From Deltaproteobacteria bacterium (GTDB lineage Bacteria; Bdellovibrionota_C; UBA2361; JANWWW01), in NCBI GenBank assembly GCA_025055295.1, contig JANWWW010000003.1, positions 1 through 55,423 on the forward strand: a DNA stretch of 55,423 nt, read 5' to 3'. Positions within the stretch are counted from its first letter, which is position 1, and the number at the start of each line of letters is the position of its first letter. This document shows positions 1,211 through 51,029 of the stretch, piece by piece. The notes under the pieces were generated by a model. It searched no databases, was not told the DNA's origin, and worked only from the letters and a program-made list of their open reading frames with translations. The position numbers and the translations under genes were made by a program.

Positions 1211-1865
1211 CAGACTTTGGGAAGTCGTTAATTAGCTTCATCAATGTTACGTTACGTGCTTTTACGTCACCCAGGGCTTCAAATATCCCAGCCTGCCTAA
1301 ACATTACGAAGGGGGCTCGTTCGCTTATTCGGTATGCACTGATAAAGTTATCACTTTTTCTCAAAGCGGTGTTGAAATCCTTAAGCTCAACATAGGCAAT
1401 GAATTCCCAAAAATCGATAATCTGATAAAGCGAATTGGTAAGTTGCCTGTTTTTCAGTTTTTCCACGAGTTGAATGGTTTCGGTGAAATTGCCCCGGGTT
1501 ATGGAATTAAGAAGTTTGTAAAGGTCCGCTCTAACTGACAACCCTTGTTGGCTGGCTACAACCTGATCCTGCTTTAAAAAAGCCTGCGGTATGGAACTCG
1601 GAGGCGGGCTTGTGTCCAACGAAACATCAAGTTCTTTGAGTGATTCAAGGTCTTGTTTCACCTTAGCGCTCAGCTCCTCCAAAGCCTGCTGAAGCTTCGA
1701 TGTCCGTTTTGACAAAAAATCGATATTTTCCTCAAAAAGCTTGAGATCCTGTTCAAGACTCTGGATTTTTTGTTCAAGCTCAGATTGTTTCTCGTAAACC
1801 GCGCAGCCAGCCAAAAAGAAAGCCAATAAACACGAAAGAACTTTTGATTGTTGAAACACTCTCAT
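1170..1865 (-). CDS. CpoB/YbgF-like lipoprotein (coiled coil + TPR)
   Basis: Lipobox FLAG-C, N-terminal coiled coil, C-terminal TPR-like segment ending LINDFPKSVEAAEAKKIL as in YbgF/CpoB. Confidence 0.7.
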   Translation of the reverse strand: MRVFQQSKVLSCLLAFFLAGCAVYEKQSELEQKIQSLEQDLKLFEENIDFLSKRTSKLQQALEELSAKVKQDLESLKELDVSLDTSPPPSSIPQAFLKQDQVVASQQGLSVRADLYKLLNSITRGNFTETIQLVEKLKNRQLTNSLYQIIDFWEFIAYVELKDFNTALRKSDNFISAYRISERAPFVMFRQAGIFEALGDVKARNVTLMKLINDFPKSVEAAEAKKILARK

Positions 1866-1880
1866 ATGTTCTTATACCCT
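1851..1880 (+). promoter_or_regulatory. sigma70-type promoter, leaderless geometry, for rbfA
   Basis: TTGAAA (1851-56), 18 nt, TACCCT (1875-80), 6 nt, GTG 1887. Confidence 0.5.
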
Positions 1881-1886
1881 ACTTGA

Positions 1887-2255
1887 GTGGCCTATAAAAT
1901 AACAAAACTCGAAACTCAGATAAGAAGAATTGTAGCAAACTTTATTTTGAAGAAGATAGATATCCTTTCTCAAAACATTTCAATAACCCGGGTGGCGATT
2001 AGTCCTGATAAATCTCAGATCCAGATATTTTGGACAACAGCAGACAGTCGTAGGACAATCATAAAAAAATTGTCGGAGGCACTCAGAAAACATGAGCATG
2101 CAATCAGAAGAAAAATTTTTACCGAAGTCAAATCAATAGCGCCCAAGTCTGTGACTTTTAAGTTCGACGATACTCCACATGTACTCTCGGAAATTGCCCG
2201 AGCGGAAAAAATTCTGGAAAAACTTAGCCGTGATGAAAAAAACTCAATTAGTTAA
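1887..2255 (+). CDS. rbfA: ribosome-binding factor A (divergent)
   Basis: 122 aa; SITRVAISPD...IFWT and APKSVTFKFDDT resemble RbfA (TITxVxvSPD...PELxFxYDxS); followed by a DHH gene, a common neighbour. Confidence 0.75.
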   Translation: MAYKITKLETQIRRIVANFILKKIDILSQNISITRVAISPDKSQIQIFWTTADSRRTIIKKLSEALRKHEHAIRRKIFTEVKSIAPKSVTFKFDDTPHVLSEIARAEKILEKLSRDEKNSIS

Positions 2256-3201
2256 ACTTCACTCGCTGTTAATAGAAGTAAAAAGCTTTGCTCTCGTTGG
2301 ACATGTTTCTCCCGACCCTGACTGCATAGGATCCTGTTTGGCGTTCAAAAAATTTTTGGAATTTTACGGGAAAAAAAGAACCTTTTTTGTGTCAGCTACA
2401 GGATCAAAGTCAAAATGGTTCGAGAAAATTGCCCCGCGCCTGAGGCCCCTCCCTGCAATACCGACTAAGTGCGAAACAGTTATTATCCTTGATTGCGCGG
2501 ATCTTTCGAGGGTCGATGCCAAAGATTTCAAAGTCAGTCAAAAGACCGTTGTTAATGTTGACCACCATATTTCAAATACCGGGTATGGCGACATTTCAAT
2601 CGTTGACGCTCGGAGAAGCTCGACTTGTGAGATCCTTTTCGATATTTTTTGCGCGCTGAGACCGGAGAAAGACTGGTTGAAAAATATCAGCAAATATCTG
2701 GCTCTCGGCATAATTTTTGACACAAATAATTTCAGGAATCAGGGTGTTTCTGAACGAGTTTTCAACATTATGGCCAAGTTAAGCAAACACATACATATAC
2801 AAAGGCTCATAAAGGTTCTAACTGAGATCAAATTTTACTCATTGCAGGAGTTTTGTCGTGGATTTCTACGAGGAAAAACGATAATGGACGGGAAAGGATT
2901 CATTCAGTTTGTGAATTCTGACACTGAGTCTGACTGGTATAGTGATTTCTTAGGTTTGGTAAAAGAGATTGATATAACTTGCGTTGCCAAACGTCGTTCA
3001 AATTTCTGGCAATGTAGTCTCAGAAGCAAAAAGCATGACGTTAACAAGCTAGCCAGACAATTTGGAGGAGGTGGACACAAACGCGCCTCGGCGTTTAAAT
3101 TTGTCGGAAGCCGAACGAAGTTGATTCAAGCCTTGGAAAGCGGGCTCAAGAAAGCTATCAACAAATCGTTGGAAAAAAAAAGCCTTATTCCGAAATCTTA
3201 A
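2233..3201 (+). CDS. nrnA: DHH/DHHA1 phosphoesterase (nanoRNase/pAp phosphatase)
   Basis: GHVSPDPDCIGS, ILDC, VDHH, DTNNF, SLRS, GGGGHKRAS. Start moved to ATG 2233, which overlaps the rbfA end. Confidence 0.88.
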   Translation: MKKTQLVKLHSLLIEVKSFALVGHVSPDPDCIGSCLAFKKFLEFYGKKRTFFVSATGSKSKWFEKIAPRLRPLPAIPTKCETVIILDCADLSRVDAKDFKVSQKTVVNVDHHISNTGYGDISIVDARRSSTCEILFDIFCALRPEKDWLKNISKYLALGIIFDTNNFRNQGVSERVFNIMAKLSKHIHIQRLIKVLTEIKFYSLQEFCRGFLRGKTIMDGKGFIQFVNSDTESDWYSDFLGLVKEIDITCVAKRRSNFWQCSLRSKKHDVNKLARQFGGGGHKRASAFKFVGSRTKLIQALESGLKKAINKSLEKKSLIPKS

Positions 3202-3204
3202 AGT

Positions 3205-49439: not shown

Positions 49440-49963
49440 AAAGTAAATTGACTTTAGGTCAAAAGTCGGCAAAAGACAGTGCTACCTGTACTTACTGACA
49501 GCAGCAAAAACTCGTCTTAGAATTATAGGTCAGTTTTTAAAAAAAACCAGTTTTCCCGCGAAGTTGAAGAAAATACTCAAAACAACCTATTCAGGATCTT
49601 TTTTGGCTGCTAGTTGTCAAAGCATGTTGTCCGACATGTATTTTAAGAGGTTATTTAAAGAATCCTGCCTCAAACTGACATCCTTCAAAAAATTTCTTAA
49701 GCCTCTCGAAAAATTTAAATTTCTTATCAAATTTGACAAAAAACCAAAAACAAGCTGTTAACAAATCATTGCGTTTTTTTTATCACCTTGTTTGAACACC
49801 GAATTTTCCGACAAGTTATTCATTTGTTTTCCATGAGAGCATTACAGACTTCCCTTGCGGACCCTTTTTTTCTTTTGACAATTTTTGGTAATTCTTAACA
49901 GAAAGTTATTTCAAGCTATTGAAAAAATGATACTCCCATTTGTGCGTGTCAATTTATTGGTGT

Positions 49964-50278
49964 CTATTTAATTAAATACAACAAGAATGTGAGCAATACT
50001 GCCAATTCGATAAATACGATACCGAGAACCATGTTTTGTCGCACACCCCCTAAAGCTGAAGGATTACGTCCTATCGCCTCCAAAGCTTTGCCTACCGCCA
50101 TTCCCATACCAATTCCAGCGCCTAAAACCGCAAAGCCCATTCCCAAAAACATTAAGCCCGATGAGCCTATTTGTTTGGTTACTTGCTCATCTGCTAGACA
50201 GTCAGACACTAATAACAAAATAAAAACCGTAAAAAATTTTCCAACGATTCTTCTCATATCACACACAAATATAACCAT
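49964..50278 (-). CDS. atpE: F0 ATP synthase subunit c with an N-terminal signal-like leader (alternative start ATG 50257)
   Basis: GxGxG helix, GRNP loop, essential Glu in VFIE; lacks the Q...ES/T Na+ signature, so H+-type is likely. Confidence 0.93.
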
Positions 50279-50297
50279 TTTTATTCGTAATTATCAA

Positions 50298-50993
50298 CTA
50301 ATGGTCTTCATGCTCTAACGCTAAATACACGTACAGACAATTTAAAAAGTAAAAAACATATGCCTGAATAAAACTAACAAAAAGTCCCACAAAATAAAAC
50401 ACAAAAGCAACCGGAATAAATCCAAAAAGTAAACCAAAATCGCTCGTAACAAAAAGCTCTACGATTTTGTGGTCGACAGTTACCGCAATTACCAAACGCA
50501 AGGTCAAGCTGAAAAGCCTTAAGCAAATGCTAATTAGTTCAAAAATTAGAACAAAAGCGCCAATTATTTTGAAGGGTAAGCCCATGTCGAGCAACCCAGC
50601 TCCCATGTGTTTAAAATAATAAATACCATGTTCTTTGATACCATAGTAATTAAAATAGATGAATGACAATAAAGCTAATCCTAAAACTATAGCAGGATTC
50701 GTAGTGGGTGCAGGCATTCCTGGAATTAGCCCCACTAAGTTAAGAAAAAAAACTGCGAAAAACAAAAATATGAGGAAACTGCCGTGCTTCTCAAACAGCC
50801 GCCGACCTAAAATATCTTCTGTGGCTTCAATAAGCTTTGAGAGAACAAAGTCAATCAGTGTTGTTGCGGTGCTTGGGTTCTTTACCTTTGACGGAGAAAC
50901 TTTCCTGACCAAGTATCCGATATAAAAACCCATAACCGTCAAGGTCGCTAGCGCTACAATACTGTCATAAAAAAAAACGTCAATTGAAAACAT
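50298..50993 (-). CDS. atpB: F0 ATP synthase subunit a (divergent)
   Basis: NLVGLIPG..PTTN, ELIS..R..SLTLRL, IQAYVF; adjacent to atpE. Confidence 0.92.
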   Translation of the reverse strand: MFSIDVFFYDSIVALATLTVMGFYIGYLVRKVSPSKVKNPSTATTLIDFVLSKLIEATEDILGRRLFEKHGSFLIFLFFAVFFLNLVGLIPGMPAPTTNPAIVLGLALLSFIYFNYYGIKEHGIYYFKHMGAGLLDMGLPFKIIGAFVLIFELISICLRLFSLTLRLVIAVTVDHKIVELFVTSDFGLLFGFIPVAFVFYFVGLFVSFIQAYVFYFLNCLYVYLALEHEDH

Positions 50994-51000
50994 TTATAAA

Positions 51001-51029
51001 ACAATAACTTTTCAAAGGCTTATTGTCAA
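51001..51029 (-). promoter_or_regulatory. sigma70-type promoter, leaderless geometry, for atpB
   Basis: TTGACA (51029-24), 17 nt, TATTGT (51006-01), 7 nt, ATG 50993. Confidence 0.75.

Follow-up and report, generated by a model that had tools for sequence, protein, structure and literature searches.

According to the survey of Zheng et al. 2011 (PMC3160421), leaderless genes in more than 200 bacterial genomes are marked by a TANNNT hexamer whose first T lies about 12 nt before the start codon. Group C of the GeneMarkS-2 classification gathers genomes with a Pribnow box 6-8 nt from the starts of first genes, and is reported to hold 1028 of 4769 bacteria, 104 of 1854 Proteobacteria among them, with 25-50% of operons leaderless (Lomsadze et al. 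2018, PMC6028130). For Actinobacteria and Deinococcus-Thermus, these reports give a leaderless share above 20% of genes (PMC3160421 / PMC6028130). The present analysis concerns a comparable signal in a 55,423-bp stretch of DNA (the window; contig C73) from a metagenome-assembled genome (MAG) affiliated with Bdellovibrionota. A first-pass annotation of the window had listed twelve first-in-unit genes with a -10-like hexamer 6-8 nt before the start codon and no Shine-Dalgarno (SD) sequence, and had called this geometry pervasive. The hexamers probably act as -10 boxes that give rise to leaderless mRNAs in a sizeable minority of the transcription units of the bacterial family concerned (family f1), whose genes, first and internal alike, are likely all free of SD sequences.

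The likeness to TA-led and group C genomes, as the cited sections of these reports portray them, lies in the Pribnow box 6-8 nt before first genes and in the frequency of GTG starts. Those genomes keep SD sequences on leadered and internal genes, whereas none is detectable in either genome of family f1. The family is also low in GC and affiliated with Bdellovibrionota, whereas group C is typified by Actinobacteria and Deinococcus-Thermus. Archaea, which the first-pass annotation cited for the same geometry, do not belong in this comparison, since their leaderless signal is described as a TATA box about 26 nt upstream (PMC6028130). As regards SD use, Bdellovibrionota are placed among moderate users (0.2-0.5), with the lowest values in Bacteroidia, Verrucomicrobiales, and Cyanobiaceae (McNutt et al. 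2024, PMC10798248). Family f1 resembles these three groups, as reported there, in an SD frequency near chance across the genome. In the Bacteroidia described, however, an A-rich non-SD context precedes all genes and leaderless geometry is not characteristic, whereas in family f1 a promoter box stands at first genes. In B. bacteriovorus, a member of the same phylum, removal of the ribosome-binding site (RBS) is reported to lower reporter output strongly, and sigma-70-type promoters work (PMC12622784). That species is thus SD-dependent, in contrast to the window's family. A literature search linking leaderless mRNA with Bdellovibrionota, Oligoflexia, Bacteriovorax, or Halobacteriovorax found no report; the group C genomes of GeneMarkS-2 may include relatives. 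Leaderless TA-led expression is known in kind, and family f1 adds a further case, real but ordinary. More unusual for the phylum is that SD sequences are absent genome-wide.

The genome carrying the window (G000; 1.76 Mb, 139 contigs, 39% G+C, 85% complete) has one companion in family f1 within the genome collection, the sister genome (G001; 1.20 Mb, 34.9% G+C, 80% complete), which represents the sole other species; being related, the two are not independent observations. By NuoD, the locus closest to the window belongs to an uncultured bacterium (82% identity); matches at 60-67% follow, mostly titled Bdellovibrionota, Bdellovibrionales, Oligoflexia, or 'Deltaproteobacteria'. Relatives beyond the family share the class only. 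The window AtpB is just 31-43% identical to theirs, which indicates that family f1 branches deeply. For comparison within the class, 278-400 kb each of G003 (39% GC), G004 (44.5% GC), and G018 (57% GC) were sampled. A home-made caller based on open reading frames (ORFs) and codon usage yielded 1415 genes over the whole MAG. Of these, 671 counted as first in unit, being either divergent or separated from the upstream gene by 80 nt or more, and 541 as internal. Reciprocal best hits joined 975 gene pairs of the two family genomes at a median identity of 51%. Homology fixed the starts in 504 of these pairs, each of the two ORFs offering a start codon on the shared diagonal at most 12 residues from the alignment start. 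The first-in-unit genes among them number 233 in the window genome and 216 in the sister genome. Below, TANNNT is the loose -10 pattern, TAHAMT the strict one, and gap the number of nucleotides between hexamer and start codon.

The positional enrichment of the hexamers is confirmed and statistically robust. In the genome-wide scan of first-in-unit against internal genes that had been proposed beforehand, the signal at 6-8 nt is concentrated in first-in-unit genes. Enrichment over shuffles, on which the first-pass annotation had staked its proposal, is present with both patterns. Among the homology-fixed genes of the window genome, TANNNT stands at gaps 6-8 in 56 of 233, against 26.8 ± 5.0 in dinucleotide shuffles (z 5.9), and TAHAMT in 27 where 4.4 would be expected (z 10.9). 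The sister genome, the family's only other member, repeats the signal (TANNNT 75 of 216 against 30.2; TAHAMT 31 against 5.0). In first-in-unit genes with an unambiguous start (no rival within 15 codons, n = 284), TANNNT reaches 24.3% at gaps 6-8 against a baseline of 11.4% at gaps 20-40, and TAHAMT 10.9% against 1.8%. The word TATAAT occurs in 27 genes at -22..-1 and in 1 gene at the control positions -72..-50.

Frame and strand were examined separately. An annotation-free test took every ATG, GTG, and TTG between 60 nt before and 120 nt after each ORF start. TAHAMT at gaps 6-8 precedes 85 of 2120 in-frame codons versus 30 of 3808 out-of-frame codons (odds ratio 5.3, p 8e-17), and the corresponding counts for TANNNT are 245 and 262. 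For strand, ANNNTA was dropped as the reverse-complement control because it is itself enriched, and TAHAMT with its reverse complement was used instead. Only this strict motif is cleanly strand-specific. At gaps 6-9 the window genome has 37 forward and 3 reverse-complement occurrences, with a single forward one at gaps 0-5; the sister genome has 36, 15, and 5, respectively. TAHAMT is near-absent at gaps 0-5 and sets in sharply at gap 6.

Several properties support the hexamers as putative sigma-70 -10 boxes set to start transcription at or beside the start codon. De novo expectation-maximization (EM) on the 30 nt upstream of homology-fixed first genes recovers T.76 A.95 a.64 A.79 a.58 T.89, at gaps mostly of 6-12. 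The same procedure on internal genes returns stop-codon-like words only, even with an AGGAGG seed. A -35 trace is visible 23-21 nt before the hexamer (17-nt spacer), with T/T/G at 51/44/22% in the in-frame set versus 31/35/17% out of frame, and a TGn extension is present in 16.7% versus 8.8%. Start codons also shift with the motif. TTG is depleted (3/131 with the motif, 17/177 without, p 0.010) and GTG is enriched (36/131 versus 29/177, p 0.024), which fits transcription initiation with a purine. Divergent genes are closely spaced, with medians of 55 nt in the window genome, 52 in the sister genome, and 50 in G003, versus 153 in G004 and 194 in G018. At least one third of the divergent pairs lie within 40 nt, and such short spacers leave no room for two promoters and two leaders.

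Conservation within the family points in the same direction. TANNNT at gaps 6-8 is kept in both genomes by 43 orthologue pairs, many of them with TGnTAnAAT, although their proteins share a median of 51% identity and their intergenic sequence has diverged. Among first-in-unit pairs, both genomes have TANNNT in 28 (19.2 expected) and TAHAMT in 10 (4.1 expected). The clearest instances are full promoters. The sister atpB has TTGACA, a 17-nt spacer, TATCTT, and gap 8, and the form of the promoter is kept beyond the family in G003 (TTGACC-18-TAAAAA, gap 6, GTG). The prfB promoter reads TTGACA-17-(TGt)TAAAAA-6-ATG in the window genome and TTGACA-18-(TGt)CACAAT-6-ATG in the sister genome. Its -10 boxes, TAAAAA and CACAAT, show that real cases escape the TANNNT pattern.

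From these features we infer where transcription starts and how ribosomes would load. The hexamers would be sigma-70-type -10 boxes, often TGn-extended and usually with a weak or absent -35 element. RNA polymerase would start on the A or G of the ATG or GTG codon, or 1-3 bases earlier. The resulting mRNA would carry neither leader nor SD sequence, and the ribosome with initiator tRNA would bind the 5'-terminal start codon directly. The remaining genes, leadered or operon-internal, presumably rely on A/U-rich unstructured initiation regions with S1, together with stop-start coupling.

The SD signal is missing throughout. Its absence, noted beforehand for the window, extends to the whole of both family genomes, in which no SD signal was detected. 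SD cores are equally frequent in frame and out of frame in both, for first and internal genes alike, whereas the same script shows an SD peak at spacing 4-10 in G018 and G004, and also in G003. The share of genes with an SD core at -17..-4, versus a control window, is as follows.

Window genome (G000): first-in-unit genes 7.4 vs 4.2%; internal genes 13.1 vs 8.5%.
Sister genome (G001): first-in-unit genes 6.3 vs 3.0%; internal genes 13.5 vs 12.3%.
G003: first-in-unit genes 21.5 vs 7.6%; internal genes 24.4 vs 12.2%.
G018: first-in-unit genes 19 vs 6%; internal genes 29 vs 5.5%.
G004: first-in-unit genes 19/71 vs 3/71; internal genes 18/48 vs 3/48.

Even from an AGGAGG seed, EM never arrives at an SD motif. 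A search for an alternative RBS covered first genes lacking a nearby box and internal genes whose spacers measure 18 nt or more; it turned up no consistent motif, the only yield being a weak GgAaA in 37 genes of the sister genome. The earlier remark that an SD is evident in the window only at the internal coxB was right about scarcity and too low in number, as an SD-like core stands at spacing 3-13 before 6 of the 47 window genes, all of them operon-internal. Of the translation machinery, S1 is encoded by a 560-aa open frame and scores 508 and 397 bits, versus 569-620 in class relatives. Among closely spaced genes on the same strand, 24% of pairs show an overlap of 4 or 1 nt. No 16S rRNA match was found in the window genome, where none is assembled, or in the sister genome; the 16S 3' end reads GGATCACCTCCTT in 12 of 12 class relatives examined. 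The +1 frameshift site of prfB, CTT TGA C, is kept in the window genome (C79, about 3330-3560, minus strand) and in the sister genome (C16, near 14263). An SD-like stimulator, GGAG 3 nt upstream of that site, exists in the former and not in the latter, which makes it equivocal as to the anti-SD.

How many units have the strict geometry depends on the estimator. The TANNNT excess at gaps 6-8, (56-26.8)/233, amounts to 13% in the window genome, and the matching value in the sister genome is 21%. EM occupancy multiplied by the mass at gaps 6-8 gives about 22% and 39%. A position weight matrix (PWM) mixture, whose shares are optimistic bounds maximized over thresholds, assigns 20% and 29% to gaps 6-8, 45% and 62% to gaps 6-14, and none to gaps 0-5. 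An argmax promoter scan of 100 nt upstream (samples of 83 and 64; a rough bound only, given its noisy control) places the best site at gaps 6-14 in 28 of 83 units. Strict leaderless geometry is thus estimated for about 13-22% of units net of chance, and a putative -10 box within 14 nt, leaders of up to 8 nt included, for about 30-45%. 'Pervasive' was too strong a word, with 24% of first-in-unit genes having the geometry versus 11.5% by chance. Compared with the 25-50% of group C, the window genome falls at or below the low end.

Other observations weigh against leaderless expression from these boxes. TANNNT defines its sites only loosely in DNA rich in A and T, and about half of its cases at 6-8 nt are expected by chance (26.8/56). 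ANNNTA shows a broad excess over gaps 3-14, so the region is generally TA-rich and TANNNT alone overstates specificity. The argmax scan puts the best site at gaps 6-8 in 12 of 83 units, and its shifted-anchor control does so in 10 of 83. A two-hexamer promoter scan of the window does not exceed shuffles (36 vs 42.9, 48 vs 43.6, 44 vs 33.6) and lists only 2 of the 12 candidates, atpB and ORF21407, which implies that most candidates lack a good -35 element. The geometry of nuoD differs in its nearest relative L001 (TAAAAT, gap 16), and that of the sthA-like gene is replaced in the sister genome by TATTAT at gap 11; neither gene has its geometry conserved there. Finally, the caller behind the genes and operon classes is home-made and crude, and the homology check of starts rests on a single sister genome.

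The leading alternative accepts the promoters and shifts the start of transcription slightly upstream, yielding SD-less leaders of 1-8 nt in which the start codon is not 5'-terminal. Enrichment indeed continues past gap 8 (TANNNT in 48/233 at gaps 9-11 and 47/233 at gaps 12-14, against a baseline of 26.3), 18% of the EM sites fall at gap 9, and in four window genes the box lies 10-16 nt upstream. The signal, however, sets in sharply at gap 6 and peaks at 6-8, in keeping with the usual distance from a -10 box to the transcription start, and codons beginning with A or G are favored over the depleted TTG in the 6-8 class. Short leaders of this kind are, moreover, usually classed functionally with leaderless mRNAs. 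Overall, this alternative is rather improbable.

A second alternative takes the mRNAs to be leadered and the hexamer to be an A/T-rich, non-SD element for ribosome binding or enhancement instead of a promoter, as in Bacteroidetes and GeneMarkS-2 group B. The SD-free genome, the TA- and A-rich region before starts (ANNNTA and AANNNA are both raised), and a small TAHAMT excess at gaps 6-9 in internal genes would fit it. Group B motifs, however, are described as preceding all genes (PMC6028130), whereas the hexamer is concentrated in first-in-unit genes and internal genes give EM only words resembling stop codons. The motif is also strand-specific, never closer than 6 nt, and accompanied by TGn and by TTG across a 17-nt spacer, and at atpB and prfB the whole promoter is conserved. 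Such an element is therefore very unlikely to explain the signal. Misplaced starts, with translation truly beginning downstream of the called codons and ordinary leaders in between, are extremely unlikely. Longest-ORF starts are error-prone, and fliW with its 44 residues before the domain is a case in point, but homology-fixed starts give enrichment that is as strong or stronger, and no SD or other signal appears in frame downstream. Chance in AT-rich intergenic DNA combined with a free choice of start codons can draw on a rate of 11-12% per gene and on the four chosen starts and two doubtful ORFs among the twelve, yet its probability is close to negligible given shuffle z-scores of 5.9 to 11.5 across tests with starts fixed independently of the upstream sequence, the frame test, and a signal that is replicated in the sister genome and absent in G004 and G018.

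Returning to the putative -10 boxes of leaderless transcription, the window itself supplies the individual candidates. Inspection of the 50 nt before each claimed start found all twelve hexamer and gap pairs as originally listed. They are given here with coordinates and strand.

1875..1889, forward: rbfA; TACCCT at 1875-1880, gap 6, GTG at 1887; TTGAAA as -35 at 18 nt; Pfam RBFA; gene-like codon usage (0.158).
4480..4495, forward: glmU-type gene; TACAAT at 4480-4485, gap 7, GTG at 4493; Pfam NTP_transf_3 and Hexapep.
14321..14335, reverse: nuoD; TAAACT at 14330-14335, gap 6, GTG at 14323.
15838..15856, reverse: ORF15840; extended -10 TGtTAAAAT, gap 7, GTG at 15840; 263 aa; gene-like codon usage (0.155).
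19662..19678, forward: sthA-like oxidoreductase; TACACT at 19662-19667, gap 8, ATG at 19676; Pfam match.
21394..21409, forward: ORF21407; TAAAAT, gap 7, ATG, with TTGTCT-17-TAAAAT; doubtful gene (codon score 0.048).
23630..23645, reverse: ORF23632; TAACAT, gap 7, ATG; doubtful gene (codon score 0.069).
28728..28746, reverse: response regulator; extended -10 TGtTAAACT, gap 7, ATG at 28730.
35754..35768, reverse: conserved ORF of 157 aa; TAAACT, gap 6, GTG at 35756; the label 'ybjN-like' is unconfirmed.
39876..39892, reverse: fliW; TATATT, gap 8, ATG at 39878, a putative start.
44082..44096, forward: Ser/Thr protein kinase; TACACT, gap 6, ATG at 44094; Pkinase from residue 15.
50991..51029, reverse: atpB; full promoter with TTGACA at 51024-51029, 17-nt spacer, TATTGT at 51001-51006, gap 7, ATG at 50993; ATP-synt_A.

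In eight of the twelve cases, no start codon of the ORF lies further upstream. The other four (glmU, ORF21407, the response regulator, and fliW) have in-frame alternatives upstream, as the first-pass annotation had admitted. TTG-type -35 elements at 17-18 nt are present as claimed and number five instead of four (rbfA, ORF21407, ORF23632, fliW, and atpB), and the TGn extension occurs in two candidates. Pfam supports RbfA, the GlmU type, NuoD, pyridine-nucleotide disulphide oxidoreductase, Response_reg, FliW, Pkinase, and ATP-synt_A; it gave no match for ORF15840, ORF21407, ORF23632, and the 'ybjN-like' ORF. ORF21407, which has six in-frame alternative starts upstream, and ORF23632 are doubtful as genes: both score below 0.077, the 1st percentile of conserved genes, and resemble antisense decoy ORFs (median 0.057) in codon usage.

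Comparison with the sister genome supports several of the starts. The glmU-type start agrees with that of its orthologue, where TACAAT is kept at gap 10. The start of the ORF at 35756 also agrees, with TACACT at gap 8 in the orthologue; in the window a nearby TTGACA lies just 11 nt from the hexamer. The sthA-like protein aligns from residue 1 with its orthologue at 80% identity, and for nuoD many relatives use the equivalent start residue. The receiver domain of the response regulator begins at residue 4 of the chosen start, and its one alternative lies 9 codons upstream. The Ser/Thr kinase has no upstream alternative start. For ORF15840 and fliW, no orthologue was found in the sister genome. 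The hexamer and gap of fliW are as listed; its start is tentative, the FliW domain extending only from residue 45 of 182.

Two further genes absent from the earlier list have the same geometry.

43029..43046, reverse: flgK; TGtTAATTT, gap 6, ATG at 43031; FlgK_D1.
7774..7789, forward: coxA; TAAAAT, gap 7, ATG at 7787, 46 nt after coxB.

For coxA, whose sister orthologue (82% identity) has TAGAAT at gap 8, an internal leaderless promoter is possible. The boxes at 10-16 nt upstream of sufB, rplA, livH, and the mutase subunit are where the first-pass annotation had put them. Counted from longest-ORF starts, 7 of 24 first-in-unit genes of the window carry TANNNT at gaps 6-8 (binomial p 0.015 at a rate of 0.114), or 8 of 25 with rbfA included (p 0.005). 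That rate bears out the earlier estimate of a chance level near 0.1 per gene, and the shuffles give 26.8/233. Solid cases number 7-9 in about 25 units, and the window is somewhat richer than the genome average. A generic promoter and terminator scan of the window was set aside, its counts not exceeding those of shuffles in AT-rich DNA.

Taken together, family f1, G003, G004, and G018 suggest that a single class of Bdellovibrionota is variable in both SD use and leaderless geometry. With the same script, G004 and G018 show an SD peak and no -10 peak, and G003 shows both. With its two signals and equally short divergent spacers, G003 looks intermediate. Tentatively, and with somewhat less than even chances, a deep-branching, small-genome family of two species may have abandoned SD-led initiation as its promoters moved onto or beside start codons, in a graded and recent SD-to-leaderless transition within one class. 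If true, this transition might be coupled with genome reduction and with an altered ribosome, in its 16S tail or its divergent S1. Within-class variation of this kind offers material for the study of how initiation modes change. In practical terms, SD models would be unreliable for start calling and expression design in this lineage, and start codons beside -10 boxes, GTG included, would be the better guide.

Further observations concern the surroundings of these genes. The rbfA start (GTG 1887) diverges from a 231-aa ORF on the minus strand (ATG 1865), with 21 nt between the start codons, which places each promoter within the other gene's first codons or in the spacer. Upstream, nuoD stands alone, with nuoE and nuoF directly downstream; at the expected place of nuoC, positions 14324-15048 form 725 nt of ORF-free DNA with one copy of a repeat resembling a miniature inverted-repeat transposable element (MITE). 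In the interval 38593-43031, fliW, flgK, and neighboring flagellar or related genes have no reciprocal best hit in the sister genome, which is 80% complete. Three class relatives from one family (L243 in G011, L247 in G019, and L240 in G023) share the word cttatacaacag...cgc upstream of atpB, about 25-35 nt before the longest-ORF start, which may be a conserved leadered promoter or a regulatory site. The 16S match of G003 (G003:C4:22079-23781) takes 1703 nt to cover model positions 1-1533, about 180 nt more than the others, which suggests an insertion.

The repeat upstream of nuoD belongs to a family of about 118 nt, whose members are 70-94% identical and number at least 19 full copies in the window genome; the window holds copies at 14879-14993 (+) and 22635-22757 (-). 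It has 15-nt terminal inverted repeats, GGGCTTGTYGAAAAA ... TTTTTCAACAAGCCC, with short AT-rich direct duplications at its flanks (for example AACAT, TTTAT, TTAAA), and its copies always lie in ORF-free DNA. In appearance it resembles a MITE. The window genome contains 225 ORF-free gaps of 400 nt or more (165 kb, 9.4% of the MAG, 34.8% GC), mostly between convergent gene ends; those in the window are 10500-11233, 21911-23006, 25519-26878, 32996-33711, 37958-38592, 49440-49963, and 52600-53258. A blastx search of the 225 gaps against the sister proteins gave a match in only 4. The median convergent spacing is 348 nt, versus -4 nt in the sister genome and 56-85 nt in G003, G004, and G018. Coding density by the same caller is 0.79 in the window genome versus 0.86-0.92 in the others.

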